From: Chloroflexota bacterium
GTDB lineage: Bacteria; Chloroflexota; Anaerolineae; UBA2200
Direction: 5' to 3'
DNA: 64,000 nt
NCBI GenBank assembly: GCA_030607875.1
Contig: JAUWJD010000004.1
Span: 68,605 to 132,604 of the forward strand
Shown: positions 17,322-64,000 of the stretch, one piece after another
How positions within the stretch are numbered: the first letter of the stretch is position 1
How the letters are laid out: each line of letters opens with the position of its first letter
The notes under the pieces: generated by a model
Databases searched by the model: none
Told to the model about the DNA's origin: nothing
Seen by the model: only the letters and a program-made list of their open reading frames with translations
Made by a program: the position numbers and the translations under genes

Positions 17322-18521
17322 ATGGCAGCAAAGCAGAACCTCATCCAGCTACTCTGCGATCTGATTGCTCTCCCCAGCGTGAATCCAGAGCACGAAACAC
17401 AGCAAAGCGAAGCGCCATACGGCGAGGGGCGGGTTGCCGACTACGTGCAGCGCTACTTCCAGCCCTTTGGCGTCAGGCTCCAACGGCAGCAAGCTCTCCC
17501 AGGGCGGGAAAGCGTGCTGGTTTGGGTGCCTGGCGCGGATGCTTCTGCCCCGCCCGTCCTGCTCGAAGCGCACACGGACACCGTGGGCGTGGAGGGCATG
17601 GACGATCCGTTCACTCCACGAGTGGAAGGCGGGCGGGTGTACGGCCGAGGGGCCTGTGATACCAAGGCCTCCCTGGCAGCGATGATGTTCGTGCTGCGGC
17701 AGTTGCTGGAGGAAGGCGCTTCGCTACCGCGAGGCCGCGTCTCGCTCCGGCGAGGCTGCGTGCTGGCCGCGACGGCGGATGAGGAGTTTGGTATGACCGG
17801 CGCACGCTGTCTGGTCGAATCGGGGGTGACCTTTTCCGGCGCTATCGTGGGCGAGCCGACCGCGCTGAAGATCGTTGCCGCGCACGATGGACAGATGTAC
17901 CTCAAGATCACAGCCCACGGCAAGGCCGCGCATACCTCGATGCCGCAGCACGGCGTCAATGCCATTTACCTGATGGACGAGGTGATCAACGTGCTGCGCC
18001 GCCGGGCGGATGCGATCTACCCGCAGCGCCAGCATCCCCTCTGTGGTTCGCCCAAGTGGACGGTGTCCATGATCCACGGCGGGACCTCGGAGCACATCGT
18101 GCCCAACCACTGCGAGATCGCCATCGACTTTCGCGTCATCCCCGGCGAGAGCTGCCAGGGGATGCTGGAGGAGGTCAAAAGCTGGCTGGCGCAAGACCTC
18201 GACGCTGCCGCTTTGGAGAGGATTGAGTTCGCAGAGCCTCACAAGACGGAGCCGCCGATGGAGACGCCGAGCGACCACCTGCTGCTGCGGGGCATGCGCG
18301 CGGCGGTTGCCGGCGTCACAGGGGATGCGCAGGTCGTGGGTGTGCCCTACAACACCAATGCCAGCCACTATGCCGCCGCAGGCATTCCCTGCGTCGTCTT
18401 TGGCCCTGGCGACATTGCCCAGGCGCACAGCGTGGACGAGTTCGTGGAAATCTCGCAGGTTGAGGCCGCAGTGGAGATCCTAAAGCGCTTCCTGCTGGAG
18501 AGTGCAGCGTCACTGAGTTAG
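17322..18521 (+). CDS. M20-family metallopeptidase (ArgE/DapE-like deacylase)
   Basis: The 399-aa ORF has LLEAHTDTV, RGACDTK, DEEFG and GPGDIAQAHSVDEF motifs. Confidence 0.85.
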   Translation: MAAKQNLIQLLCDLIALPSVNPEHETQQSEAPYGEGRVADYVQRYFQPFGVRLQRQQALPGRESVLVWVPGADASAPPVLLEAHTDTVGVEGMDDPFTPRVEGGRVYGRGACDTKASLAAMMFVLRQLLEEGASLPRGRVSLRRGCVLAATADEEFGMTGARCLVESGVTFSGAIVGEPTALKIVAAHDGQMYLKITAHGKAAHTSMPQHGVNAIYLMDEVINVLRRRADAIYPQRQHPLCGSPKWTVSMIHGGTSEHIVPNHCEIAIDFRVIPGESCQGMLEEVKSWLAQDLDAAALERIEFAEPHKTEPPMETPSDHLLLRGMRAAVAGVTGDAQVVGVPYNTNASHYAAAGIPCVVFGPGDIAQAHSVDEFVEISQVEAAVEILKRFLLESAASLS

Positions 18522-19017
18522 CTGACCACCAGGGCTGCAAAGTCCCCAACAGACTGGGCAGCGACTGCTATCGCGGCTGCGATAGCATGGAATTGCCCTC
18601 CGGGCCCCAGGTCTCGGCCTAGTCCTGGGTCCAGAACGCATATCTCCTGAGCCCCGGAACGTAGCATAGGGCCTTGCCGCATGTCTCGTCGTAGATCTTG
18701 GCGAAGACAAGGCAGAAGGCGACAGTTCGTCCCGCGCCGACGGGATGGTTCGCCTCGCTACGACGAGGTGCTCGTCCTCTCCCGAGCGCCGCAACGTAGC
18801 ATAGGGCCTTGTGCCCGTCCTCTCCCCCCGAATCAGGACGCCACAAGGGGTTAGGCTACGCTTATTGTCAAATCAGATGGCTCCGTGTCACGTGAACTGC
18901 GCCTCGCAGCAAGAACTAGCCCATCTGGGCCAACTGTGCATCTCATTTCGCTCTGATGTCAGTCGCCGAAACCGACCTTGCAACAGCCCTGCAATCATGT
19001 ACTCATGTACCCGTGAT

Positions 19018-19046
19018 TTGACAAAATAGAACATTTGTGCTATACT
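19018..19046 (+). promoter_or_regulatory. Orphan near-consensus sigma-70-type promoter
   Basis: TTGACA, a 17-nt spacer, then TGcTATACT. It reads toward the M20 fragment and the R-M-like operon. Confidence 0.45.
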
Positions 19047-19286
19047 CCCACCTATGACAACTTGCAGCAAACCAGCCACAATCCCATCCGCCGCCACCAC
19101 CCACTACCCACGATCCTTTTTTTGCCAAACGAACCCATTTTTCACAAATGTACATCGTCCCCCATCACCCAGTTACCCATCAGCCGTACACTGCTGGAGA
19201 CTTGACCCATGACTGTTACCAGTAAACAGCTTGCCGCCAACTGCCGCAACGCCCCGCCCCCCCGATGGCAGAACTCGCAGCCGCTG

Positions 19287-19547
19287 GAGACGCCGACCGA
19301 CCACCTGCTGGTGCAGGGCATGCGCACGGCGACAGCCGACGTTGCAGGGGATGCAGAGGTCGTGGGTGTCCCCTACAACACCGATGCCAGCCACTTTTCT
19401 GCCGCGGGGATTCCCTGCGTCGTCTTTGGCCCCGCCGACATCGCCCAGGCGCACAGCGTGACCGAGTTCGTGGCGATCGAGCAGGTTGAGGCCGCGGTGG
19501 AGATCCTGAAGCGCTTTCTGCTGGAGGGTGCAGGGTCACTGGGTTAG
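19287..19547 (+). pseudogene. Diverged duplicate of the 3' end of the M20 peptidase gene (last ~87 codons only)
   Basis: A hand alignment of 19287-19553 against 18261-18527 gives 233/267 identical positions with no gaps, extending 6 nt past the stop. The fragment sits in a 112-aa ORF (19209-19547) whose first ~26 codons are unrelated. Confidence 0.7.
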
Positions 19548-19670
19548 CTGACCGTGGCTCACTGTTGACTGCTCTGCGAAGGTATGTTATCATAATGGCG
19601 CAGGTGATGTAAAAGACTCTAGCCTTTCATTGTGCCCTCAAGCTGCCAGGTAGACCAGGAGTGTGTCCCT

Positions 19671-21518
19671 ATGGCCAAGAGCCAACCCACGCAGCGAGAA
19701 CTGTTTGAGGTAGCCGAACTCCCCGGCCGGCCGATGCTGCACTGGCACGGCAAGCGCCCCCTGCAGGAAATCCCCTACTACCCTGCCCAACTGCGCGAAC
19801 GCTACGGTGACCTCCCCTCTCCCCCTGGGAGAGGGGCCGGGGGTGAGGGCGAGGGCCGTCCCTGGGCCAACCGCCTCTACTGGGGTGACAATCTCCAGGT
19901 GATGGCCCACCTGCTGCGCGAATTCCGCGGCAAGATCAAGCTGATCTACATTGATCCGCCCTTCGACTCTGGCGCTGACTACCGCAAGCACGTCAAGCTG
20001 CGCGGCACCTCGGTGCAGACCGACCTAGGTGTGCTCGAAGAGCGGCAGTACACCGACATCTGGAGCAACGACCTCTACCTGCAGTACATCTACGAGCGGC
20101 TGATCCTGATGCGGGAATTGCTCACAGAGGATGGGAGTATCCATCTGCATTGCGATTGGCACCGTGTGCATCATCTGCGGTGTGTGATGGACGAGGTCTT
20201 TGGCGCAGACAACTTCAAGAATGAGATTGTGTGGTGGTACTACAACAAGATGCAGGGAAATGTGAAACGCTTCGCGTCAAACCATGACACCGTCTTGTAC
20301 TACGCCAAGTCAGACAGGTTCACGTTCAATCGGCAGACGGAGCCTCGCGACAGGCCAGTTAGGCAACTCAAGCGCGCGTGGGATCCCGAAGAGGGCAAGC
20401 TTGTCAACGTAAGGGACGAGGAAGGAAACATAGTCTACATCGAATCTACTGAGCGAACTGTGGATGATGTGTGGCGCCTATCCATGCTGCAACCGGCCGA
20501 TACTACAGAGAATCTTCGGTTCCCAACTCAAAAGCCTGAGTCGCTCGTTCGTAGAATCGTCTGTGCGTCTTCAAACCCCGGTGACGTTGTCGCTGACTTC
20601 TTTGTCGGCTCGGGGACAACGCTGGCCGTGGCACAGAAACTGGGCCGGCGCTGGATCGGCGCGGACATCAACCTGGGAGCCATCCACACCACGGCCCAGC
20701 GCCTGTCGCGCATCATTGAGGAGCAGCAGGCCCAGGCTCAGCAGTTGGAGTTGCCCGACGGCGACCAGAAACCGGCTTTTTCCGAAGAACCGAGTTTCCA
20801 TCCCGTTTTCGAGCTCTACAACGTCAACCACTATGAAGTGTTCAAGAACGCCGAAGAAGCCCGCGACATCATCCTGCAACTCTACGGCGTACAGCCGCTC
20901 AAGGGCCACCGCTTCTTCGACGGCATCCTGGACGGTCGCTGGGTCAAGGTGGTGGACCTCAACCGCATCTGCTCCAAGCTGGACATCCAGACCATCTTCG
21001 ACAACCTGCCGCCCGACGACACGCGCGGCGTGGTGGTGCTCTGCTCCGGCCACGAGTACGATGTGCCGGAGGTCATCAAACAGCGTAACTTGCTGAACAT
21101 CCCCTTTGAAGTGCGTGACATCCTCACCGACCGCAAGGATGTCATCTTCAAGCGGCTGCCGGAGGCGCAGCTCAAGCTGACCCGCGCCAACGGCCATCTC
21201 ACCCTGACCATCGAGCAGTTCTACTCGCCGCTGCTGCTGCAAAAGCTGTCGCTGGAGGACGAGCCCGAAGCCATCGAAGACTGGCGGCAGATCGTGGCCT
21301 CAGTGCTCATTGACCCCGCCTACGATGGCGAAGTCTTCCACGCCCGCATCACCGATACCCCCGCCCGGCGCGACGAATTGGTGAGCGGTGAGTACACGTG
21401 GGAGGTAAGGGAGTACAGGGAAGGCCAGGTGGCCGTGAAGATTGTGGACGTCCTGGACGAGACGTGGTTTGGAGTGGTAGACTTGCAAAGCGAGCCTGGG
21501 GATTCCCTGGCGGATTAA
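19671..21518 (+). CDS. Type III Mod-like beta-class N6/N4 amino-DNA methyltransferase
   Basis: Motif IV IDPPF (19953-19964) precedes motif I DFFVGSGTT (20595-20621), which is the beta-class order. A variable middle region lies between them, and a long C-terminal extension follows. I chose the start at MAKSQP; the track start is 19632. Confidence 0.85.
   Translation: MAKSQPTQRELFEVAELPGRPMLHWHGKRPLQEIPYYPAQLRERYGDLPSPPGRGAGGEGEGRPWANRLYWGDNLQVMAHLLREFRGKIKLIYIDPPFDSGADYRKHVKLRGTSVQTDLGVLEERQYTDIWSNDLYLQYIYERLILMRELLTEDGSIHLHCDWHRVHHLRCVMDEVFGADNFKNEIVWWYYNKMQGNVKRFASNHDTVLYYAKSDRFTFNRQTEPRDRPVRQLKRAWDPEEGKLVNVRDEEGNIVYIESTERTVDDVWRLSMLQPADTTENLRFPTQKPESLVRRIVCASSNPGDVVADFFVGSGTTLAVAQKLGRRWIGADINLGAIHTTAQRLSRIIEEQQAQAQQLELPDGDQKPAFSEEPSFHPVFELYNVNHYEVFKNAEEARDIILQLYGVQPLKGHRFFDGILDGRWVKVVDLNRICSKLDIQTIFDNLPPDDTRGVVVLCSGHEYDVPEVIKQRNLLNIPFEVRDILTDRKDVIFKRLPEAQLKLTRANGHLTLTIEQFYSPLLLQKLSLEDEPEAIEDWRQIVASVLIDPAYDGEVFHARITDTPARRDELVSGEYTWEVREYREGQVAVKIVDVLDETWFGVVDLQSEPGDSLAD
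19814..19836. repeat. Perfect 9-bp GC-rich hairpin (cccctctcc-N5-ggagagggg) inside the Mod coding sequence
   Basis: I read this directly. It encodes the in-frame Gly/Pro-rich insert LPSPPGRGAGGEGEGRP. Confidence 0.6.
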
Positions 21519-21561
21519 CGAACCATTCTCAGCGATAGTTGGAGCTTGAGGAGGCGGAAAT

Positions 21562-23385
21562 ATGAACTTAGAAGAACAACTCCGAGGTAGATCTTTCGAA
21601 CAGATTCCAATCAGAGTCACTTCTGGGATCCTACTTCACATAGGAGCAGGCATCTACAATTCAGTTGCAGGAGCAATAAAGGAACTTGTGAGTAATTCCT
21701 TTGATGCAGATGCTACTCGTGTCGTCATCTCAACAGACTACCCAAACTTTGAACAGATAAAGGTTGTAGACAATGGGCTTGGTATGACTCCAGGGCATTT
21801 CGCCAAAGCCATGCAATCAATCGGAAGTAGTCTCAAGGGTATACTACAACCAACTGGACTAACACCTATCTTCAAACGTCCCATAATCGGACACTTGGGC
21901 ATTGGGCTGATGGCACTGACTCAGGTGTGCGGAGAGGCTACTATCGAGTCACAGATTCCTGACTCGGATACCAAATTCGTTGCTCAACTGGATTTCTCTC
22001 AATTCAGACAGCGCAAGCAGAGGCAGACTGAAGCCGCAAAGGTGGACATTTTCCGCGAGTTAGCGACGGCCTACGGTGGACTTGAGGAGATGAAACAGCG
22101 TCTGGAAAGCCTGGACCCTGAATCCGATGTATATATTGAGATGTTGGCACAGTATGAATTGGCAAGTAGAGCGGAAATGGTTTTCAGAGAACGGGGCATG
22201 GAAGACCCAGAGAAGGAGCACTTGGGCTATTGCGTGCTTTTTCCTGATCTGCCAGCCGTTCCGAATCAGCAGGGCACTACTATTACTCTGACCAAGATTG
22301 ATGAAGGCGTCCGAGCTTCACTGCTAGATAAGGGCAGATCGCCAGATGCAATACCTCAGCATTACAAAGACAGAGGTATGACGTGGAGTGAATACCGTGA
22401 TGAGGTAAACAATTGGCCTTGGGATGAGCTTTGCAAGCGACTGCGGATGAAAACAAGTCAACTAGCCTATCAGTCATTGCCGCGATATCATCAATTTCTC
22501 TGGGAACTTTCCAGTATGATACCTGTACAATACCTGGAAGAAGGCCCTGTTCTGCTGGAGACTGATCTGCTAAGGCGGAAGAAAAAGGAACTCGATCGCT
22601 TCAGTTTCTCCGTGCTCGTGGACAATCGCCCTTTGTTGAAGCCTATTCTGTTGCCATCAGGCGCTGTGGCTCGTGAAGACAAACTGGAGCGAGGGTATGA
22701 TTACTATCTAGAAACTTTCAGTCAACAAGATGAGACGGTTGATGAGGAGCTTCTGAAATACGAGGGTTACATATTCTGGCAAAGAAAGCAGGTAGAGCCT
22801 AGCGCCGTGCGAGGCATTCAAGTCTACATCCGTAATGTTGGTATTGGGCTTTATGACCAAACACTGATGGGTTTTTCCGTAGTGAACCCAACATCCAGAG
22901 CAGGGCAGATGTCGGGAGAGATATATGTTGAAGAAGGGCTTGAGCGAGCCTTGAGCGTTGATCGAAACAGTTTTCGCGAGACGGATGCTCACTACATTGC
23001 CCTACAGGAGCATTTGTGGGAACTAATTGGATCAGCGACCCGTGAGGACGGCATCATGGGTATGTCTGTGGAGGCCTACTGGAAACGCAGAGACCGGCGC
23101 GAAGAACAAGCCCTTGAAGAGCATATCCAGACACTCGCGGAGCAGGTGCAGCAAGCTAGTGGCGGCAAGTTCGTTCTCGAGTTTTCTGATCAGGAAAAGC
23201 CGCAGCCATATGTCGTAAGAGATAACCAGATAACTGTGTACGATGGCTCATCCAGTTGGCCCCGCTCAAGTTCGGAACGTCGTTTATACCAGCAGTTGTT
23301 AGCTCCGATAAAGGCGGCTATCGCAACGGGCGCGTCCGCTGAACAAGTGCTGGATCTTCTGGAAGAGATTCTGTTGAAGCAATAG
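21562..23385 (+). CDS. GHKL-superfamily (HATPase_c_3 / MORC- or MutL-like) ATPase
   Basis: Bergerat-fold motifs are present: N-box ELVSNSFDA (21682-21705), DNGLGM (21769-21786) and GHLGIGLMA. A GAGGAGG RBS precedes the gene. The product is 607 aa. Confidence 0.8.
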   Translation: MNLEEQLRGRSFEQIPIRVTSGILLHIGAGIYNSVAGAIKELVSNSFDADATRVVISTDYPNFEQIKVVDNGLGMTPGHFAKAMQSIGSSLKGILQPTGLTPIFKRPIIGHLGIGLMALTQVCGEATIESQIPDSDTKFVAQLDFSQFRQRKQRQTEAAKVDIFRELATAYGGLEEMKQRLESLDPESDVYIEMLAQYELASRAEMVFRERGMEDPEKEHLGYCVLFPDLPAVPNQQGTTITLTKIDEGVRASLLDKGRSPDAIPQHYKDRGMTWSEYRDEVNNWPWDELCKRLRMKTSQLAYQSLPRYHQFLWELSSMIPVQYLEEGPVLLETDLLRRKKKELDRFSFSVLVDNRPLLKPILLPSGAVAREDKLERGYDYYLETFSQQDETVDEELLKYEGYIFWQRKQVEPSAVRGIQVYIRNVGIGLYDQTLMGFSVVNPTSRAGQMSGEIYVEEGLERALSVDRNSFRETDAHYIALQEHLWELIGSATREDGIMGMSVEAYWKRRDRREEQALEEHIQTLAEQVQQASGGKFVLEFSDQEKPQPYVVRDNQITVYDGSSSWPRSSSERRLYQQLLAPIKAAIATGASAEQVLDLLEEILLKQ

Positions 23386-23398
23386 GGAGCGTGCAACG

Positions 23399-24490
23399 AT
23401 GCCTGGAAGGTCTAAAAGGGAAGAGCGTAAGCAAAGGCTCGAGGAGGAAGGAGTTCCAGGACGAATTCGCGAACAGGCTGAGCGTCAAAAGGAACTCTTC
23501 TTCTTGGAGCGGGATCCTATCAAGCAGTATGTTCGTCACTTTGGTTGGCTTCAGATTGTCCAGGACTATGTGCAACGACGGCGAGACGATGGTGTAAACC
23601 GACCTTTAAGGTATCTCACTTTGCCTGGACCCAACGCCACGGATGTAGGGGTGCTGTGGCGCGCGGGCCTACTTGTTAGAACGGATGAAGGGTTTCCGGA
23701 CCTGGTAATCTGTGACGAGAAGTTCGCCGATGAGGCTTTGATGGTTTTAGGCGCGGTTGACGGCGTCAGCAGACAATCGCTCATCTATGCAGTAAAGAAA
23801 GACTTGGTCCCTTATTTCCCCTTCGATGTCATCAATTTGGATATGTACGGAGCCGTGGTCACCGGTAGCCCCACACGGCGCAGAGCTCTGCGGACACTGA
23901 TAGCTGTTCGACAGATCATCTATCTGCAAAGAGGGCAAAGCTTCCTTCTTCTTCTGACCTGTTCAACCGATGATCTCTCGGCCCACACTTACTTGGAAGA
24001 GTGCCTCTTGGGAAACTTCAATGAAGATGATTTCCGAAAGGCTTATCTTGAACGATATGGAAGGCTCGATTCCAATCCTTTCCAAAATGACTACAGAACC
24101 TTTGTGGGCCTGGTTCTCCCAAAAGCCATTGGAAGGATGGCTAGGAAACGTGGCTACAAAATAGCCGAACACTTTGCAGCCGAGTACGATAGAAGAAGCC
24201 ACCATATATTGTGCCATGGTTTTGAGCTGGAGCCTTTGGGGAGAAAGAAGCCTGAGAAGAAGTACGAAGCTCACTTCGAAAACGTCGAGTGGGATGAGCT
24301 AAATGAAGAACTAACTGGTTCAACTCGGGACCTTGCGAACAAGGCTTATCTGGAGTTTATTCCGACCCTTGTACAGCGGGATCTACTTGATGTTCAAAAT
24401 ATCTTGCGGTCGAATCCCGACTTGGAGATCCGGATGAAGCAAGAAGCAAAATCATATGTCGGGTGGGAAAAATCGAATGAGCCAGAGTGA
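23399..24490 (+). CDS. Hypothetical protein (363 aa) in the R-M-like operon; no family recognised
   Basis: The ORF has a coding-like composition. It starts 14 nt after the GHKL gene and overlaps the next gene. Local patterns YLTLPGPNATD and FDVINLDMYG weakly recall a Rossmann/MTase-like fold. Confidence 0.6.
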   Translation: MPGRSKREERKQRLEEEGVPGRIREQAERQKELFFLERDPIKQYVRHFGWLQIVQDYVQRRRDDGVNRPLRYLTLPGPNATDVGVLWRAGLLVRTDEGFPDLVICDEKFADEALMVLGAVDGVSRQSLIYAVKKDLVPYFPFDVINLDMYGAVVTGSPTRRRALRTLIAVRQIIYLQRGQSFLLLLTCSTDDLSAHTYLEECLLGNFNEDDFRKAYLERYGRLDSNPFQNDYRTFVGLVLPKAIGRMARKRGYKIAEHFAAEYDRRSHHILCHGFELEPLGRKKPEKKYEAHFENVEWDELNEELTGSTRDLANKAYLEFIPTLVQRDLLDVQNILRSNPDLEIRMKQEAKSYVGWEKSNEPE

Positions 24491-25832
24491 GAATTTGACA
24501 ACGAGTCTAATTGACAGGCTGCTTCTCAAAGATGCTCGTCTCTTGACGGGAGTTCTTTCCTCCACTGATCCTCGTGTGGATGTCATAATCACCTCCCCGC
24601 CTTACTGGGATTTGAAGGACTACAAAATACCCAACCAGATTGGGTACGGCCAGACCAAAGGCAAATACCTTGACGATATGGAGAAAGTCCTGAGGGATTG
24701 TCTTCTAGCAACGAAGCCAACTGGCTCCTTGTGGCTTGTCGTTGACACCTATCGAGAAGACGGCGAATTGCAGCTTCTTCCCTTGGAACTGGCTGAGCGT
24801 GCCCGCCAAGCGGGCTGGAAGCTCCGCGATCTAATCGTGTGGGACAAGCAGCATAGCGTTCCTTGGCATAGAAAGGGACAACTACGAAATATCTCCGAAT
24901 TCATTCTTTTCATGACCAAGTCCGATGACTACAAATACTATGTGGAACGTATCAAGACCCTGGATGAGATTAGCAAATGGTGGGTAGATTTCCCGGAGCG
25001 GTTCAATCCGAAGGGCAAGACGCCGACAAACATATGGAGCATTCCGATGAGACCTCGGGGGACATGGCGCAAGCCATCCAAACTCGATCACTGCTGCTCA
25101 TTCCCCACCGCGCTAGTGGCACGGATCATCGAACTCACGACCGACCCCGGTGATCTAGTGATGGACCCTTTTGCTGGATCAGGCGTTGTGCTGGCTCAGG
25201 CTGCTACGATGGGGCGCCACTACATAGGATTCGAGGTCAATGAGGAATATGTCCAAATGTTTGAAGAAACAGTCAAAGACGAGGTGGCCGCTGAGTGGAA
25301 GGAGATGAGGGCCTGGAGAAAAAGCCAGGCAGATGCCAAAGTTGATTTCGAGCAGACGATTATGAAATTAAGAGCATTGAAGTACGCGCGTCAAGTAACC
25401 AGGCCCTTCCTCGAAGTGCTCAAGCCAGAACAACAAGCCCAGATTTGCGCCATTCTATGCACAGCGTCAATCCCTAGTGAACATCAACGTGGTCGTCCCT
25501 TTGATGTCAAGGTCTTGATAGTGGTGGATCGAAGCCTTCCTGAGTTCGAGACAGCTCTTGAAAAAGCCAGGGCTAGGGCGGCACGACCGCCGCTGACTCA
25601 ATATGGCATACGCTCAGATATACAAATTGCTACCTATTCGGATCTAAGGTGCCAAGGTGACCTTGTCGATCATACGTTATACCTGTACCCCAAATACAAG
25701 TCCCGCAAGTGCACAGCCAGTGGCTCGTTGCAAAGCTGGTTTGAAACGGGACAACTGAAAGAGTTAGGCGGGGATGGCAAGGTGCCAATGCTTGCAAATG
25801 TCGCTGTAGACGTTGCATGGGTATTGGAGTAA
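24477..25832 (+). CDS. Beta-class N4-cytosine/N6-adenine DNA methyltransferase
   Basis: Motif IV TSPPY (24594-24605) precedes motif I DPFAGSGVV (25164-25190). An alternative start is 24456. Either start overlaps the upstream gene. Confidence 0.85.
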   Translation: MSQSENLTTSLIDRLLLKDARLLTGVLSSTDPRVDVIITSPPYWDLKDYKIPNQIGYGQTKGKYLDDMEKVLRDCLLATKPTGSLWLVVDTYREDGELQLLPLELAERARQAGWKLRDLIVWDKQHSVPWHRKGQLRNISEFILFMTKSDDYKYYVERIKTLDEISKWWVDFPERFNPKGKTPTNIWSIPMRPRGTWRKPSKLDHCCSFPTALVARIIELTTDPGDLVMDPFAGSGVVLAQAATMGRHYIGFEVNEEYVQMFEETVKDEVAAEWKEMRAWRKSQADAKVDFEQTIMKLRALKYARQVTRPFLEVLKPEQQAQICAILCTASIPSEHQRGRPFDVKVLIVVDRSLPEFETALEKARARAARPPLTQYGIRSDIQIATYSDLRCQGDLVDHTLYLYPKYKSRKCTASGSLQSWFETGQLKELGGDGKVPMLANVAVDVAWVLE

Positions 25833-25839
25833 TAGAGTA

Positions 25840-28374
25840 ATGACCGAGCCGGTGGCTGATTTTCAAGCTCTCCTATCAGCGGCTTTCGCTGTTGAACGTC
25901 GTGAGCCTAAAGACCCGACCCTGCGCTACGGCGGCTCTGGCCGCAGCGAGGACAAACTGCGCGAGTTCACCAGCACGCCCTTCTACCATGCACTGCTGCC
26001 GGAGACGCAGAACATCCTGCGTCACATCCGGCGCGTGGAGTGGCTCCGTCCGCCGCAGGTGGATGCCCTGGAACTGTACATCTACCTAAAAGAGGTGCGC
26101 GGCAACCCCACCACCCAGCAACTGTACCGCGAAGTGCTGCTGGGGGACATCGAGGGCAAATCGGCCCTGGAGCTGACCGCTGCCGAGTTGGAGCGGCTCA
26201 AGGCGGCCAAGGCCCAGATTGAGGCCATCGAACAGACCCTGATGGGCGTGGACTATCCCAACACCATCTACTCCCTGGCCATGGGTACCGGCAAGACCAT
26301 CCTGGTCGCGGCGATGATCTTTTACGAGTTCGTGCTCTCCTGGAAGCACCCCGACGGTCCCCGCTTCGCCAGGAATGCCCTGGTCTCTGCCCCGGACCTG
26401 ACCGTCATCGATTCCCTGCGCGAGATACAGGCACTCGACCGCTCGCGTATCCTGCCTGGAGAGTACGTCAACTTCCTCGATACCAACCTAAAGTTCCACT
26501 ACCTGGCCGACTCGGGCGCTGAACTGACCGTGCTGCCCGGTTCTGCCTATAACATCATCGTCTCCAACGTGCAAAAGATCATCCTGCGCCGCTACCGCCG
26601 CCCCAGCGATGCCCGCACGCTGTTCGGTGATACGCGCCGCGCCGAAGCTGAACTGGTCTCTAACCGGCGCTTGCAGCGCCTGCAGGAACTGGACAACCTG
26701 GCTATCTTCGTGGACGAAGCCCACCACTCCTTCGGCCGCTCCCTGGAGGGCAACCTGAAGCGCGTGCGAGAGACCATCAACCACCTGCACACGCGGACAC
26801 CGCTGGTCGGCTGCGTCAACCTGACCGGCACCCCCTACGTGAACAACCGCATGTTGCCTGAGGTGGTCTACCACTACCCCCTGGCTGACTCTATCCAGGA
26901 CGGTCACCTCAAAGAGGTGCGCTTCTACGACTATAGCCGGGTCAAGACCGAGGAGTTCGTTCGCGACGTGGTGGGCCGCTTCTGGGAAGCCTACGGGGAG
27001 CAGCGGAGCGAGGGGCTGCTGCCCAAAATGGCCGTTTACTGCGCCACCATCCGCGAACTGGAGAGTGAATTCCGCCCTTTGCTGGAGAAGGTGCTGGTTG
27101 AGCTAGGCATCCCTACGGCCAAGATTCTGGTCAACCACAGCAAGGTAGATGACGACGCGGTGCGCCGCTTCCGCGAGCTGGACACGCCGGATTCACCCTA
27201 CCAGTTCATCCTGCTGGTGGGTAAGGGCACCGAGGGCTGGAACTGCCGCAGCCTTTTCAGCACGGCCCTCTACCGCCGGCCCCACAGCCGCGTCTTTCTG
27301 CTGCAATCCTCGATGCGCTGCCTGCGCTCCATCGGCGACATGCCCCAGACGGCCAGTATCTTTCTGTCCACCGAGAACCGCAACGTGCTGGAGAAGGAGA
27401 TCGCGGCTAACCTGGGCACCAGTATGGATGCATTGCAACGGCAGAAGAACCGACGGCGCATCACCATCAAGGTCCTCAAAGCCAAGAAAGTGCGCCTCAA
27501 GAAGCCCATTACCCGCATCGTGCAGCGCCGCCGAGCAAAGATCGGCTCTCTGGCCTTTGGGCTGGACAGCGTTGACCTGAGCCTGTACGAGCCAGTGGTC
27601 ACCTTGACCAAGGGTCTGGAGATGCGCACTGCAGAGGCCGAGAAGGTGTACCGGCTTCAGCGCTGCTACAACTCGTACTCGCTGGTGGAGGAGGCGGCGC
27701 GTTTCACCGGCCTGCCTTGCCTGGAGGTGGAGCGCATCCTGCGCCAGTCCGACGATGGGATTGATAGTGTGCTGGACTATGTGAATCGCGAGAACGCCCT
27801 GCTCCACGACGTTGTGATTCCTGCAATCCAGGATGCCCTGTTCGAATACGAGGAAAAGAGCGGCTCGAGCGAGGAGGAGGTGGCACTGGCGGCCAATTTC
27901 CCTGTAGAGCGGTACGTCAGCGGGGATCAAGAAAGGTTGGTGATGCGGCCAGACGGTGGCCGTGAGCGCAGCTACCACCTGGATCATTACATCTTCGACT
28001 CTGGCGAGGAACGAAGGCTCTTCGAGATGTTGCTGACCCACGAACGGGTGGAGGAGGTCTACTTCACCGGCGGCATCACCGACCCCGCGCACAACGAATT
28101 CTACATCGAATACTACGATGGGCAGGCGGGTCGCTGGCGCAGGTACTTCCCTGATTTCTTCCTCAAGTTTGCCGACGACGGCTGGATGGTGATCGAAGTA
28201 AAACGCCAGGACCAGACCGAGCATCCTAACGTCAAGGCCAAGGATGACGCCGCTCGCCAGGTCTTTGAAACGCTGAACGGCATCCTCTACCACGTCAAGC
28301 CCGACGACCAGATCCGTCGGGGCGAGATCCACGACATCTTTCAACGTGCTGTGCCTCCGCCAGCGGGTGCGTGA
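25840..28374 (+). CDS. Type III Res-like SF2 DEAH helicase with a C-terminal PD-(D/E)xK-type nuclease motif
   Basis: Helicase motif I AMGTGKT (26278-26298), motif II DEAH (26713-26724) and motif III LTGTPY are present. The C-terminal YFPDFF...WMVIEVKRQD (28144-28206) is nuclease-like. I chose the start at MTEPVA after a GGAG. Confidence 0.85.
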   Translation: MTEPVADFQALLSAAFAVERREPKDPTLRYGGSGRSEDKLREFTSTPFYHALLPETQNILRHIRRVEWLRPPQVDALELYIYLKEVRGNPTTQQLYREVLLGDIEGKSALELTAAELERLKAAKAQIEAIEQTLMGVDYPNTIYSLAMGTGKTILVAAMIFYEFVLSWKHPDGPRFARNALVSAPDLTVIDSLREIQALDRSRILPGEYVNFLDTNLKFHYLADSGAELTVLPGSAYNIIVSNVQKIILRRYRRPSDARTLFGDTRRAEAELVSNRRLQRLQELDNLAIFVDEAHHSFGRSLEGNLKRVRETINHLHTRTPLVGCVNLTGTPYVNNRMLPEVVYHYPLADSIQDGHLKEVRFYDYSRVKTEEFVRDVVGRFWEAYGEQRSEGLLPKMAVYCATIRELESEFRPLLEKVLVELGIPTAKILVNHSKVDDDAVRRFRELDTPDSPYQFILLVGKGTEGWNCRSLFSTALYRRPHSRVFLLQSSMRCLRSIGDMPQTASIFLSTENRNVLEKEIAANLGTSMDALQRQKNRRRITIKVLKAKKVRLKKPITRIVQRRRAKIGSLAFGLDSVDLSLYEPVVTLTKGLEMRTAEAEKVYRLQRCYNSYSLVEEAARFTGLPCLEVERILRQSDDGIDSVLDYVNRENALLHDVVIPAIQDALFEYEEKSGSSEEEVALAANFPVERYVSGDQERLVMRPDGGRERSYHLDHYIFDSGEERRLFEMLLTHERVEEVYFTGGITDPAHNEFYIEYYDGQAGRWRRYFPDFFLKFADDGWMVIEVKRQDQTEHPNVKAKDDAARQVFETLNGILYHVKPDDQIRRGEIHDIFQRAVPPPAGA

Positions 28375-28529
28375 CGTCCGTTGTTGCGTAGACAATTCAG
28401 GCCTCTGGCAACAGCTAAAGCCCGGCTCATTCACTGACTGGGCATAGCGCTGCTTACATCCCTCACTATTCGACGTTGTGTTTTGAACTCACCCTCCGCC
28501 GAGACTGCGGGCGGAGCAAAGGAACGTGA

Positions 28530-59940: not shown

Positions 59941-60205
59941 ATGAACGCACGCGAAGCCAGGGAACATGGAGCACGCATAGCCGCTCTCGTTCAGGCTGGA
60001 AAGATGCGGCAAGCCCATTTCCTGTTGGCTCCGGTTCTCGCCGAACGGACTCCGTTTCGCTTCCTTGGGCGCATTGGTGAGGCTGTCGGCGCGGGCTCAC
60101 TGGACGAGGTGAACCTTTTCCTGGAGCACATCGCCGCAGAGAAGACCGAAGGTGGCTGGGTGGTGATCGCCAGCGCCCTGGGCGCACAGTTGGGGCGCGA
60201 CCTGG
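59941..60205 (+). pseudogene. N-terminal ~88-codon fragment paralogous to the AlkD-like gene at 57428
   Basis: MNAREAREHGARIAALVQAGKMRQAHFLLAPVLAERTPF aligns with MNARKARELGARVASLVQAGQMKQAYTLLAPVLAERTPF. Similarity stops near 60205. Confidence 0.6.
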
Positions 60206-60408
60206 CTGGCGGAATTGCCTCACGGCCGCAACTTCAGCAGGATCGAACGTCCGGTCAGGAGCGCAGACCATCAAAGCATCGTAGCCGTGCAAGAGTTGAA
60301 GCGTCAGGGATGCAGCCGGGTTGCGCTCAAAGACGAACTCGTCTTGCAGCACCTCAAACTAGTCTTGGTCTCAAAGCTTCATAGGCTGCTCCTTCTGGCG
60401 TTCTTGGA

Positions 60409-62088
60409 TCATTGTGGGTCGGGTGCCCTCACGAAATAGTCCTCCCACCCTGTTGCTTTGTCAAGGGTGGGCGCTTTGATGTTCCCCAGCCTTTGTCCTC
60501 GTGATCGGCGGGCTTTCAGGTAGGCCTCCATCGCACCCTTGGCTACTGGAAAGACTTTAGGATGGCCCAACTGGCCAAGTTTGCGGCAATAGTTGTAGTG
60601 AAAACTCCGACGGAGATTCTGGTCAAGATCCGCACATAAATCAGTCAGCACTTGAGTGCATTGCTGATCAGGAGGGAGCTCAAGATATAGTGTGTAGCGG
60701 AAACCCCTTGCTGCATCGTCAGGTGCCAGCATGGCAAATACTGGCGATAGCCCGTGTTGGTCAAAGATATCGTGCAGTATTCTGACTACAAAGTGCTCGT
60801 TGAGTTTTTCTCCGAACCAGTCTGAAACGTGGTCGGCTTTGCCAAGAAACCGAAGGCAAGGAGCTTGTTCCATGTAGTCAACCACCTCCACGATATCCTG
60901 CAATTGGTACCTATAGAAACCACCGCCTGTAGTTACCACCACAGCATAGGTCTGTCCCCTATCCAGTTCATGGGCTAGTTTGGGCTGCTCAGACAAGACT
61001 TCGTAGGTCTGACTATTCACTGGCAGGAACTCAAGAAAGTGAGCTGTGACGGCGAGAACGGCTCCAGTGACCCCTGCGACTGGAAAAGAGACAAACGCTT
61101 CCGTAGCGATCAAGCCCTTGCCTTGGAATTGAACATTGGGGAATTGTGCCTTCAGCGTTTGGGCATAGCGAGCAGCGGGGCCATCCATCCAGCAACTGAT
61201 CAAACGAAGACCTGGCCAAATAGCCTGATAGTTGGATGGCTGGATCACAGCGAGTGCTTTTGCCCGCTGGGGATCGGGGGGCAGTTGATGAAGCAAGGTT
61301 TGATGCAGACAAGAATCTAGTCCGCTTGGCGATGTTAGCGTTCCATGCGCGATATCGCCTATCAGGGCTTCCCACCATTCGGACAGAGGCGCGAGCAACA
61401 GGCTGAGGAATGTCGGATTCCACACGGAGATGATGCGCAGGTCTGGTTGACACAGCAAGAAGAGCAAGGTTACGTAGCGAAAACTTGTTACATCCGGAAT
61501 GTATTTAACCTCATTAGGAACGGCGAGGGCTGAGTCGACCAAGTACTTGCCTAGAGAGCCAAGGTATGCACTGTCTTCTTCAAAACCTATTGGGATACCA
61601 CTGGAGGTGAATCGTCGACCGTCGGTTAGAGGCGTAATTGACCAGTAAGCCGGTCCACGCTTAAGATGAGGATCGTGCCGAAAAAGGCTGTATATCCAGC
61701 AAGCGATGCCTCTTTGAAACTCGGATCTCAGCTGCACGGTGTACGGTATCAGTTTTGAAGCCGCCGTTGATCCACTGGAGATCTCAAGCATGAGCACAGG
61801 TGAAGCAGTCAGAACTCTTTGCCTTCCCTGGCTGATTGCCTCGATGGCTTTCGTGTAGTTGTCATAGGTTGTTAGTGGGACGGATCTCTGATAGGCGTCG
61901 ACGGAGGTTATTGAGGCAAACTCGAAGCGGCTCCCGTAGTCTGTATCCCGGTTTTTCTCCAGATAGCTCATTAGGAGCTTGCACTGTACCTCCGCAACGT
62001 CCGTTGTGGCGCGCACAAATTGATGCCAGGCAGGCAAACAGGTAGCTTGCCAAAGGTTGTTTGCCAGTCTTGGCCCTACGCCTCTCAT
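60409..62088 (-). CDS. GH3 (auxin-responsive promoter) family acyl-adenylate-forming enzyme
   Basis: The 559-aa ORF has the N-terminal pattern YGSRFEF...YQRSVPLTTYDNY...SSGSTAASKLIPYT typical of bacterial GH3 proteins. Confidence 0.8.
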   Translation of the reverse strand: MRGVGPRLANNLWQATCLPAWHQFVRATTDVAEVQCKLLMSYLEKNRDTDYGSRFEFASITSVDAYQRSVPLTTYDNYTKAIEAISQGRQRVLTASPVLMLEISSGSTAASKLIPYTVQLRSEFQRGIACWIYSLFRHDPHLKRGPAYWSITPLTDGRRFTSSGIPIGFEEDSAYLGSLGKYLVDSALAVPNEVKYIPDVTSFRYVTLLFLLCQPDLRIISVWNPTFLSLLLAPLSEWWEALIGDIAHGTLTSPSGLDSCLHQTLLHQLPPDPQRAKALAVIQPSNYQAIWPGLRLISCWMDGPAARYAQTLKAQFPNVQFQGKGLIATEAFVSFPVAGVTGAVLAVTAHFLEFLPVNSQTYEVLSEQPKLAHELDRGQTYAVVVTTGGGFYRYQLQDIVEVVDYMEQAPCLRFLGKADHVSDWFGEKLNEHFVVRILHDIFDQHGLSPVFAMLAPDDAARGFRYTLYLELPPDQQCTQVLTDLCADLDQNLRRSFHYNYCRKLGQLGHPKVFPVAKGAMEAYLKARRSRGQRLGNIKAPTLDKATGWEDYFVRAPDPQ

Positions 62089-62795
62089 CGGATCATCCGC
62101 AGCCCAGCAGGAGTAAAGTTATTGAGATGAATGCGTGTCAGACAGACCAACTCGTCGCCCTGACCATGTCCAGGATTCCTGGCAACAAAGAAGGCAACGT
62201 GTGGATCCTTTAGACGTCTTTCGGTGATTTCAGCCACTCCCTGTTTCAGGGGGGTAGCACCGGCGGCAAAACGAACGATGCCTGACTCAGGGTAGTATTG
62301 CGATCCAAAACGCTCGCGAGCTAGGTGATGAATCACCTCTTGAATCTGAGAAGGAGTTGGTCGGTCGTATCTGGGATAGTACTCCTTGAAAAAGGTTGTG
62401 AGAAAGCGGTAGGTTTTGTAGCCGGATGAGATGAGGAGCCAATACAGTGGTTTCGGCAGTTGCTCCCCCATTCTTAGAACAAGCTCACCCCAGGCACGAG
62501 GGAGTTCAGACGTGCCCCAATAGGCCGGGCGGATGATCGTATCGCCAGAGTAGACCACACCTACCTCTTTGCCCTCTACAAGGGATGTGTAGAAAGCAAG
62601 CGTGGAGAAGCCGTGGATGGATTTGGACGTTGGATCTCGCAGAACAATCACCCAGTTCTTGTCGTCCAGATCTCTCCGGAATGTCTCTGGGGTGGTGTTT
62701 TCATAGTAATCTTGGAACACGTCGAACATGTTCTGGACATCATCATCGGTTAGATCGGACTTGGGTAGTGACTCGCCTTTCAATAGTTGGGCCAT
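62085..62795 (-). CDS. Hypothetical protein (236 aa), possibly an acyltransferase-like fold
   Basis: It is tightly packed between the radical SAM gene (3-nt gap) and the GH3 gene (4-nt overlap). No diagnostic motif was recognised. Confidence 0.55.
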   Translation of the reverse strand: MAQLLKGESLPKSDLTDDDVQNMFDVFQDYYENTTPETFRRDLDDKNWVIVLRDPTSKSIHGFSTLAFYTSLVEGKEVGVVYSGDTIIRPAYWGTSELPRAWGELVLRMGEQLPKPLYWLLISSGYKTYRFLTTFFKEYYPRYDRPTPSQIQEVIHHLARERFGSQYYPESGIVRFAAGATPLKQGVAEITERRLKDPHVAFFVARNPGHGQGDELVCLTRIHLNNFTPAGLRMIR

Positions 62796-62798
62796 TCT

Positions 62799-64000
62799 TT
62801 AACCTCCTATCGCGGTACCAAGCCCCAAACCTCTGCTTGTTGTCAGTTGGAGGGGCACATTCTCCAGACCTGGTTCCAGGGGCGTTTTGGCACCCAGTCG
62901 GTGCTCAAGCTTGTAGGCAAGCTCGCGTCTTGCGAGCAGGTTTACTCCTAAGAACAGCCCGAGGCTGTGAATGTTGCGGCTGTTTGCCAGGGGGTCGAGC
63001 GCGCGCTTGAGAATAGATCCATATCCATGAAAGATCATGCGCGCCCGCATACATCCTTCAGTCAGCTCATCCGCTGTCATCCGGAGCGGGTGAAAGGTTG
63101 CCTGCCCATAGCGATAATCGGGGTCGAGCCACCAGCGCTCGTAGATTAGCCGGTCTTCATTCATTAACCGATTGTAGAGCCTTGAACCGGGCATCGGGGC
63201 CAAAGTGTTAATATTGGCCAGGGCGCACTTGGAGCGGATGGCGAATTCGGCTGTGATATCGAACGTGTCAACCGTATCGTGGTCATAACCGAAGACAAGG
63301 GAGGCGTAGACCATGATGCCCCGATCGCGGAATTCTCGGATCGCGGTAGGATAGTCGCTGTGCTTGAGGTTCCATCCTTTCCTCATCTGCCTCAGGTTGT
63401 CTTCATCGAGCGACTCGAACCCAATCATAGCGCAGAAACAACCGCTTTTCGCCATCAGATCCATCAACTGAGTATTCTTGGCTATGTCAATGCTGATCTG
63501 GCAAGCCCAGTGGATGTTCAAAGGAATCAAGGCGCGGAACAGCTCTTCCACCTTTGAGATATCCACAAACAGGTTGTCATCAATAAACACGATGTATCTA
63601 CGATCAAGAGCTTTGATTTCAGCCACCACTTCGGCTACTGGCCGTTGCCGTGTCTGAGAACCGTAGAAGGCATGGATTGAACAGAAATCACAGGCATATC
63701 GGCACCCACGGCCAAACTGGACAGGAGCGACCAGCTTGTAGCGCTTGCCCTTGAAGATGCTACGGTCGAATCTCAGCCCCTCTAGCGACGGCTGTTCCGA
63801 GTCCCTGTAGACCCGCTGCAGCTCACCCTGCTGGGCGTCTCGAACGAGCTGTCCCCAAATCCTTTCTGCATCCCCGATCACAACCGCATCGGCGTAGACC
63901 AACGCCTCCTCGGGCAGGAAGCTGGGATGGTAGCCGCCCATAACAACCGGGATGCCGCGCTTGCGGAACTGAGTGGCAATCTGATAGGCGCGCCTGGCGG
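62799..64000 (-). CDS. B12-binding-domain radical SAM enzyme; the 5' end lies beyond the window
   Basis: It has GRGCRYACDFC (CxxxCxxC). The reading frame stays open upstream of the track Met (…FRKRGIPVVMGGYHPS), which is typical of the B12-binding N-domain. Confidence 0.8.
   Translation of the reverse strand, partial: ARRAYQIATQFRKRGIPVVMGGYHPSFLPEEALVYADAVVIGDAERIWGQLVRDAQQGELQRVYRDSEQPSLEGLRFDRSIFKGKRYKLVAPVQFGRGCRYACDFCSIHAFYGSQTRQRPVAEVVAEIKALDRRYIVFIDDNLFVDISKVEELFRALIPLNIHWACQISIDIAKNTQLMDLMAKSGCFCAMIGFESLDEDNLRQMRKGWNLKHSDYPTAIREFRDRGIMVYASLVFGYDHDTVDTFDITAEFAIRSKCALANINTLAPMPGSRLYNRLMNEDRLIYERWWLDPDYRYGQATFHPLRMTADELTEGCMRARMIFHGYGSILKRALDPLANSRNIHSLGLFLGVNLLARRELAYKLEHRLGAKTPLEPGLENVPLQLTTSRGLGLGTAIGG

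Follow-up and report, generated by a model that had tools for sequence, protein, structure and literature searches.

A GHKL ATPase cassette between the mod and res genes of a Type III-like restriction-modification locus in a Chloroflexota bacterium

Introduction

Type III restriction-modification (R-M) systems cleave DNA in an ATP-dependent reaction that needs two inversely oriented unmethylated sites, and their methylation is confined to one strand. GHKL ATPases encoded beside methylases were predicted in 2008 to take part in R-M; in that survey, prokaryotic MORC and paraMORC genes are linked mostly to cytosine-specific methylases, sometimes to superfamily II (SFII) helicases and Vsr-like repair genes, and they integrate at hotspots (Iyer, Abhiman and Aravind 2008, PMC2292703). 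Two GHKL-bearing Type II enzymes, HgiDII and BbrUII, are proven restriction enzymes with a C-terminal nuclease fold that is unassigned, and for the Pbe system no cleavage of viral DNA was detected (PMC6459918). We found no experimental study of the family of GHKL ATPases encoded next to methylases in the literature. Here, we analyze a locus of this kind in a 64,000-nucleotide (nt) stretch of a Chloroflexota bacterium (contig JAUWJD010000004.1, positions 68,605 to 132,604; hereafter, the window). Five genes, designated A to E, lie together on its forward strand, and we read them—with a probability of roughly 0.7—as two independent modification-based systems, in which a Type III-like pair formed by A and E holds a three-gene cassette, B-C-D, nested inside it. 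An earlier note on this DNA had proposed the five genes as a single undescribed defense system.

Results

A foreign three-gene cassette separates mod from res

According to an independent gene call on the identical public contig (L007), the locus consists of A (19671–21518, 615 amino acids [aa], with a longer GTG form of 628 aa from 19632), B (21562–23385, 607 aa), C (23399–24490, 363 aa), D (24477–25832, 451 aa, alternative ATG at 24456) and E (25840–28374, 844 aa, alternative TTG at 25813), all on the + strand. With these starts, the gaps are 43 nt (A/B), 13 nt (B/C) and 7 nt (D/E), and C overlaps D—the close, co-directional spacing that the earlier note had described. Its domain calls for A, B, D and E were likewise supported by profile searches (N6_N4_Mtase, HATPase_c_3, ResIII and a PD-(D/E)xK-fold profile), and all the motifs it quoted were found: DPPF and FVGSG in A; ELVSNSFDA, DNGLGM and GHLGIGL in B; SPPY and DPFAGSG in D; and PDFF...IEVK in E. 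Ahead of the five genes, just one sequence resembles a sigma-70-type promoter well, namely a site before A (19565–19593, +; TTGACT-17-TATCAT with an extended TG), which is a consensus match only, at 10 of 12 positions. No notable promoter-like or terminator-like site was seen at the A/B and D/E junctions, and no terminator-like site lies between any of the five genes.

The three central genes occupy a low-GC segment of 4.4 kb (21430–25836, +), delimited both by nucleotide-homology edges and by a shift in G+C (GC) content. In windows of 400 nt, the GC fraction drops from 0.60–0.63 to 0.46–0.53 near position 21430 and is back to 0.61 at about 25836. The same shift is visible at third codon positions, where the values of 0.488 for B, 0.519 for C and 0.558 for D compare with 0.778 for A and 0.804 for E, the latter two resembling those of the flanking housekeeping genes. 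At the nucleotide level, the segment is 85% identical to three metagenomic contigs (L008–L010), 79% to an Anaerolineae metagenome-assembled genome (L005/L013) and 72% to a further locus (L011). Homology to L005 and L008–L011 ends at 21430 and 25836, beyond which the flanks are unrelated; the right edge falls 4 nt past the stop codon of D, and the left edge shares some 50–90 nt (about 15 codons) with the 3' tail of mod. We considered whether the last 29 aa of A could be derived from the cassette and ruled this out, because cassette-free Mod relatives align up to residue 613–620 of A (numbering from GTG-19632, 628 aa); the tail is therefore genuine Mod sequence. In L008–L010, a remnant of this tail with an in-frame stop (about 50 nt in L008 and L009) lies upstream of the cassette, which must therefore formerly have followed an A-like mod. 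In two of these contigs (L008 1184–3002 and L009 249–2067), the GHKL gene is frameshifted, with residues 1–26 in another frame; these copies are in decay.

The trio also occurs by itself. A GHKL gene, then a gene of the PP_RS20740 family to which C belongs and then an N6_N4 methylase gene recur in L001, L003, L005, L008–L010 and L013–L017, all of which lack Mod and Res relatives; across these loci, the identity to C ranges between 90% and 32%. In all close cassettes (L001–L017), D is the gene that immediately follows C. The three-gene arrangement that the earlier note had suggested looking for in other genomes is conserved, and it is found independently of A and E. Other defense or toxin-antitoxin genes accompany the cassette in five of six independent contexts, its neighbors including TIR/STAND, HEPN/NTase, PIN and R-M genes. 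A radical-SAM gene that follows D in L005, L008–L010, L014 and L015 was weighed as a fourth cassette gene and rejected: its identity of 90–94% among those loci exceeds that of the cassette, and neither the window nor L001, L003 or L011 contains it, which makes it a syntenic chromosomal neighbor. On sequence evidence, then, B-C-D is a discrete, horizontally acquired cassette inserted between mod and res.

The outer genes form a widespread Type III-like pair

A matched N6_N4_Mtase (4e-48) and, among the PADLOC models, it matched best the Type III Mod model MTase_III (2e-68). DPPF at residue 95 precedes FVGSG at residue 311, i.e., motif IV stands before motif I with a variable region between them, and the stretch 20227–20565 could not be aligned with the nearest sequenced relative (L063), both flanks being 80% identical. 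DPPF is the adenine type of motif, and SPPY points to N4-cytosine methylation. A is a β-class Mod methylase and the modification subunit of the outer system, and by its DPPF motif it is probably of the N6-methyladenine type. Profile matches to ResIII (6e-7), to the PD-(D/E)xK fold of Tn7_TnsA-like_N (1.5e-7, residues 768–821) and to REase_III of PADLOC (6e-8), together with 57 bits against a cut-off of 800 for NCBIfam BPTD_3080, were obtained for E. The motifs GTGKT, DEAH, TGTP and QSSMR, followed by PD-x16-EVK at 771–788, identify E as a Res-type superfamily 2 (SF2) DEAH helicase with a C-terminal PD-(D/E)xK nuclease, i.e., the restriction subunit of the outer system. A PDB sequence search with E returned nothing useful.

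A metagenome scan with E yielded at least 559 relatives, and 80 loci were kept, 73 of them with a usable upstream flank. An A-like mod (37–66% identity to A) lay upstream of the E-like res in 70 of these 73 loci and was immediately adjacent in 48. Judged from this arrangement and from the profile matches, A and E are a widespread two-gene Type III-like system. In the window, mod and res stand 4.3 kb apart with the cassette between them, and co-transcription is plausible from the layout. Both outer genes are full length relative to their relatives; with a single promoter-like site before A and no internal terminator-like site, the Type III-like system may still work.

The same survey bears on the idea of one integrated five-gene system, with B, C and D as accessory subunits of Mod/Res and E supplying nuclease and helicase. 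None of the 80 E loci contained a relative of B, C or D, and no relative of A or E was found in about 55 loci holding a C relative; since the five genes were never found together elsewhere, the claim of the earlier note fails by the standard that the note itself had set. The cassette is, moreover, foreign to its surroundings in composition and has sharp homology edges, and the corresponding gap of the nearest A/E relatives holds unrelated cargo. What speaks for a five-gene unit is the tight co-directional packing behind one promoter-like site, with no internal terminator-like site, and the fact that the cassette has no recognizable nuclease of its own. An SF2 helicase also directly follows the GHKL–PP_RS20740 pair in two archaeal loci, and SFII helicases adjoin about 70% of prokaryotic MORCs in the 2008 survey (PMC2292703); the archaeal helicases, however, are of the HKD/PbeA type and unrelated to E. 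Taken together, we regard a single five-gene system as improbable, and two nested systems as the better account.

The mod-res junction receives variable cargo

The nearest A/E relatives (L063–L066), with Res 84–85% identical and Mod 80% identical outside the variable central region, carry different genes at the position of the cassette. In L063 (1–9100), the gap between mod and res holds an NTase/HEPN pair, a TIR-SIR2 protein, a CHAT protein and a 290-aa open reading frame (ORF), and in L064 (1–5830) it holds HEPN, an 823-aa CHAT protein and a 247-aa ORF. In more distant loci (L069–L074; e.g., L071 3468–9126), mod and res are separated by a 387-aa EVE-domain gene, the stop and start codons overlapping, and its product is 91–94% conserved over the six full-length contigs. 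The EVE domain is predicted to read modified bases. The mod-res junction of this lineage is a recurrent landing site for variable defense cargo, and defense genes nested in another defense operon have a precedent in Septu inside hmaABC (PMC11232893). This has a practical consequence, in that automated system callers must recognize such a cargo site; otherwise, chimeric "new systems" will be reported.

B is modeled as a MORC-like ATPase and is encoded next to a protein with a predicted methyltransferase fold

B matched HATPase_c_3 (3e-15) and has at least 326 homologues of about 600 aa. The ATP-binding residues of its Bergerat fold (E41, N45, D48, D70, G72, G74, G110, G113, G115, G238 and T239) were invariant in 39 diverse homologues. 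In a Foldseek search with the AlphaFold model (predicted local distance difference test [pLDDT] score of 86), the matches were TRAP1/Hsp90, MORC2, MORC3 and MORC4, with E-values of 1e-12 to 1e-9 over more than 500 aligned columns. At the sequence level, similarity to MutL, PMS2 and Hsp90 was confined to the N-terminal GHKL domain, and B did not group with sensor kinases, topoisomerases or true MutL—the possibility against which the earlier note had set its proposal. No nuclease in B was recognizable in domain searches or among the structural matches. We model B, from sequence and predicted structure, as an intact GHKL ATPase of the MORC/Hsp90/MutL type, with an S5-like transducer domain and a helical C-terminus. 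In G418-IQVYIRNVGI, the closest stretch of B, compared without a reference alignment, the arginine stands two positions earlier than in the GhXhhpXXRhl motif that MORC proteins carry in the S5 domain; as the motif is not exactly matched, B is better termed paraMORC-like, with no particular paraMORC family assigned.

C, the partner of B, gave no match against a local copy of Pfam, to which PF28273 is a later addition; precomputed Pfam annotation assigns PF28273 (PP_RS20740) to the identical protein and to 70 of 71 homologues. Against the NCBIfam equivalog NF047698, C scored 57 bits where 200 are required, and each of the 38 aligned homologues likewise matched below the cut-off, which places C in a distinct branch of the wider PP_RS20740 family. 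An exhaustive profile search returned 794 clusters at 50% identity, all of them stand-alone proteins of 320–420 aa with no fusions. PDB sequence searches with C and its profile returned nothing useful, and the literature on PP_RS20740 yielded just a hypothetical protein mutated in furfural-adapted Pseudomonas putida.

In Foldseek searches of PDB and BFVD, the top matches to the model of C (pLDDT of 89) were all class-I S-adenosylmethionine (SAM) methyltransferases (including Trm1, NovO, DNMT3B, MET1 and DNMT2), with weak scores (E-value of 5e-4, template modeling [TM] score of about 0.3). Residues P76, G77, D82, C105, D106, D143, N146, D148, K242 and E276 are invariant, and the conserved stretches LPGxxAxD, ICD and FPFDVINLD occupy the places of methyltransferase motifs I, II and IV. 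C thus models as a divergent class-I SAM-methyltransferase (Rossmann) fold with a non-canonical motif IV. Could C be an active second methyltransferase, making the cassette a two-methylase modification module with an ATPase and no restriction activity? The fold itself would allow this, as would D106, a conserved acidic residue that closes strand 2, the place at which the SAM ribose is bound in methyltransferases. Yet C lacks the canonical GxGxG, (D/N/S)PPY and PCQ signatures, the loop after D148 is variable, the structural similarity is weak, and C is always paired with the ATPase rather than with a methylase, so that we consider an enzymatically active C highly unlikely and favor a non-catalytic role for its fold. 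As an unchecked lead, the context of C fits the "MTaX1" domain, which accompanies C5 and circularly permuted N4 methylases in CxC-ABC and R-M systems (PMC10853773).

D completes the cassette. It matched N6_N4_Mtase (3e-45), and SPPY followed by D(P/S)FAGSG was present in D (as DPFAGSG) and in all nine orthologues examined. D is a β-class amino-methyltransferase and the modification enzyme of the cassette; by its SPPY motif, it probably produces N4-methylcytosine (m4C). A conserved C-terminal extension of about 170 aa has no recognized fold, and a PDB sequence search with this part gave nothing useful. As with B, no nuclease was recognizable in C or D.

One ATPase-partner core, several modification chemistries

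Scanning species-representative genomes with a profile of C returned 50 loci, 47 of which had a left flank. They belong to Chloroflexota, Acidobacteriota, Candidatus Poribacteria, Cyclobacterium (Bacteroidota), Nitrospiraceae, Verrucomicrobiota, Omnitrophota, Planctomycetota, Saccharimonadales and two archaea. A B-like gene stood immediately 5' of C in all 47, frequently overlapping it; the B-C pair is the invariant core of the cassette.

The modification genes beside this core differ between lineages, and a methylase adjoins the pair in about 18 of 27 loci outside Poribacteria. The clade of the window carries the β-class SPPY methylase downstream of B-C. A permuted SPPY methylase, with motif I first, lies upstream of the pair in L051, L053, L054, L056, L057, L059 and L062 and downstream in L043. 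C5 cytosine methylases accompany the pair in L034, L040, L042, L046, L055 and L060, and in L052 a C5 methylase is joined by a NaeI endonuclease. In three of the C5 loci (L034 11020–12645, L042 563–2221 and L055 6487–8199), the methylase is fused to an HhH-GPD glycosylase, which may provide built-in repair of deaminated 5-methylcytosine (m5C). In Poribacteria (about 20 species; L018–L033, L036, L038, L039, L049 and L050; e.g., L018 3–11092), B-C is syntenic and 70–94% conserved, and a DndC-like gene (PAPS_reduct plus Sp-DndD) and a DndD-like ABC ATPase are syntenic with the pair in 19 of 20 loci. Some of these loci also contain an inserted four-gene block encoding an SNF2 helicase, a ParB_N protein, an HTH_ParB protein and a 339-aa ORF. 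Finally, in the two archaeal loci (L035 8139–15726 and L061 926–8442), the genes after the pair encode an HKD-like SF2 helicase of about 705 aa, a CxC-type ABC ATPase of 656–695 aa and a DndE-sized ORF of 144–145 aa—a PbeA/PbeC/PbeD-like set, with an amino-methylase nearby. A restriction-side module would be expected to show just this pattern, with one B-C core beside three DNA-modification systems that differ in their chemistry.

The Poribacteria loci also lend weight to a different function, in which B-C, with or without D, would be a chromosomal DNA-maintenance or epigenetic module that organizes, repairs or regulates modified DNA, rather than a defense module. Besides the conservation at one syntenic site in some 20 species, this fits the fusion of several partner C5 methylases to a repair glycosylase, the established stimulation by MutL of Vsr repair at methylated cytosines (also covered in PMC2292703), and the lack both of a visible nuclease and of copies found in phage or plasmid collections. 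Against it stand the patchy distribution across phyla, the foreign composition in the window, the position among TIR/STAND, HEPN/NTase, PIN and R-M genes, the decay of some copies (the frameshifted B of L008 and L009) and the swapping of modification partners, which is typical of R-M systems. On balance, we think a maintenance role unlikely and retain defense as the more probable function of the cassette.

Discussion

A working model for the cassette

In Type I, Type III and BREX enzymes, recognition is the task of methylase modules. By analogy, C could act as a DNA or modification sensor through its methyltransferase-like fold. In the model we propose, D would mark a host DNA motif, and B and C would form a complex that surveys DNA, with B acting as a dimerizing, ATP-driven clamp or looping motor, as proposed for MORC/paraMORC by Iyer et al. 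(2008, PMC2292703). Unmarked DNA would then be blocked from use, or passed to a nuclease outside the recognizable content of the cassette.

A more radical version of this model is conceivable, in which B-C would be a nuclease-free restriction module that is agnostic to the type of modification: a MORC-like clamp, guided by a DNMT-like sensor, would entrap or silence DNA lacking the m4C, m5C or phosphorothioate mark, with no cutting involved. We hold this version to be speculative and rather doubtful. If true, such a module would be a prokaryotic counterpart, and possibly an ancestor, of the eukaryotic silencing of transposons by MORC proteins and DNA methylation.

Several observations weigh against reading the locus as a working defense cassette nested in an independent Type III-like system. 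The main gap in our account is that no nuclease is recognizable in B, C or D, which leaves classical restriction unproven; this gap is softened by two precedents, R.HgiDII—with its GHKL domain and unassigned nuclease fold—and Pbe, for which no viral DNA cleavage was detected. The assignment of D to m4C is based on the SPPY motif alone. With C as the query, tblastn found no match in plasmid and phage collections, and a scan of IMG/VR gave a single weak one, so that we infer mobility of the cassette from its composition only. No modification gene adjoins the pair in about a third of the loci outside Poribacteria, and no DNA methylase was found within 10 kb of it in the approximately 20 Poribacteria loci, where the pair is syntenic and seemingly vertically inherited, such that a chromosomal housekeeping role fits as well as defense. 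In the window itself, the shared strand, the absence of an internal terminator-like site and the gap of 7 nt between D and E make cross-talk between both systems possible in this genome.

Other features of the window

Upstream of A, a direct repeat of 277 nt with 87% identity (18251–18527 and 19277–19553, with the spacer at 18528–19276) duplicates the 3' end of an M20 peptidase gene (17322–18521) 1026 nt downstream, leaving a 112-aa gene fragment (19209–19547). The non-coding spacer contains a 34-nt repeat (18643–18676 and 18778–18811, 91% identical) and a near-consensus promoter-like site (19018–19046). This arrangement resembles a scar left by an element that had inserted at the gene's 3' end. 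We rejected it as an island boundary, since it encloses just about 750 nt upstream of A and not the R-M locus. A 413-aa ORF that runs antisense within E (27193–28434, −) has most likely stayed open by chance, the coding DNA here being rich in GC. GC content is also lowered in a second stretch (60001–64000; 0.537–0.539 compared with about 0.58–0.61 elsewhere), which coincides with three co-directional ORFs on the minus strand (60409–62088, 62085–62795 and 62799–63941). An Rfam scan of the window gave no match.

Comparison with described systems

Set against described defense systems, the locus divides along the same line as its composition. A and E resemble Type III R-M systems of the EcoP15I-like Mod/Res kind in their β-class Mod with a variable center, in their Res with an SF2 DEAH helicase and a PD-(D/E)xK nuclease, and in the position of mod directly upstream of res in relatives. 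They differ in that E is far from the curated Res models and that the mod-res junction of their lineage holds inserted genes.

For the cassette, searches with PADLOC-DB 2.0, a version to which systems described after 2023 (e.g., MADS) are external, returned generic methylase and restriction-enzyme models for A, D and E, two weak REase_II matches for B and nothing for C, and no BREX, DISARM or Dnd match for any of the five proteins; signature proteins of the other catalogued multi-gene systems, Mza and Hma among them, were likewise not recognized. This agrees with the statement in the earlier note that a GHKL ATPase combined with an orphan protein and methylases is not a catalogued arrangement. 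BREX and DndCDEA-PbeABCD, modification-based defenses in which DNA cleavage is not demonstrated, can be likened to the cassette, as a modification enzyme marks self and is accompanied by ATPases; B and C, however, are not homologous to any Pbe or Brx protein. Because a helicase and an SMC-like ATPase come after the archaeal pairs, we had considered B and C as counterparts of PbeA and PbeB and ruled this out, since PbeA is an HKD-SF2 helicase and PbeB a protein of 66 aa, PbeC being a CxC ABC ATPase (PMC6459918, PMC10853773). Given these different architectures, the Pbe-like genes seen in archaea are neighbors of the pair and not homologues of it, and no HKD-SF2 helicase, CxC ABC ATPase or DndE-like architecture is present among the five proteins of the window. 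The Hma system (helicase, methylase and ATPase) was likewise ruled out, because HmaC is a DUF499 ATPase and not a GHKL protein.

Closer parallels exist for B. The Type II enzymes HgiDII and BbrUII share an N-terminal GHKL domain with it, and their model NF050001 is its best NCBIfam match (3e-18, residues 23–156); the score is nevertheless 65.5 bits against a cut-off of 550, with profile positions 9–139 of 659 aligned, and these enzymes consist of a single protein plus a methylase, with no C-like partner. VcSduA of the Shedu type I-D/paraMORC3 group is an anti-phage GHKL ATPase modeled as an entwined dimer with a clamp-like middle domain (PMC12137116). Unlike B, VcSduA bears a C-terminal DUF4263 PD-(D/E)xK nuclease and acts alone, whereas B has no DUF4263 and is always found with C. 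The MORC and paraMORC proteins of Iyer, Abhiman and Aravind (2008, PMC2292703), to judge from the available part of their survey, match B in combining GHKL with an S5-type module, in their intact motifs and in their sporadic occurrence in bacteria and archaea; an obligatory partner with a methyltransferase fold, such as C, and a minimal nuclease-free three-gene form are not described in that part.

The locus isolates a minimal, portable form of 4.4 kb and three genes from the prediction made in 2008. As the partners of B-C switch between m4C, m5C and phosphorothioate from one lineage to another, the reading of DNA modification by a MORC-like protein becomes testable in a small construct, and the cassette bears on the origin of MORC silencing in eukaryotes. 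The comparison as a whole points to B-C-D as an uncharacterized, modification-linked, restriction-like module and a member of the broad class that Iyer et al. (2008) had predicted.

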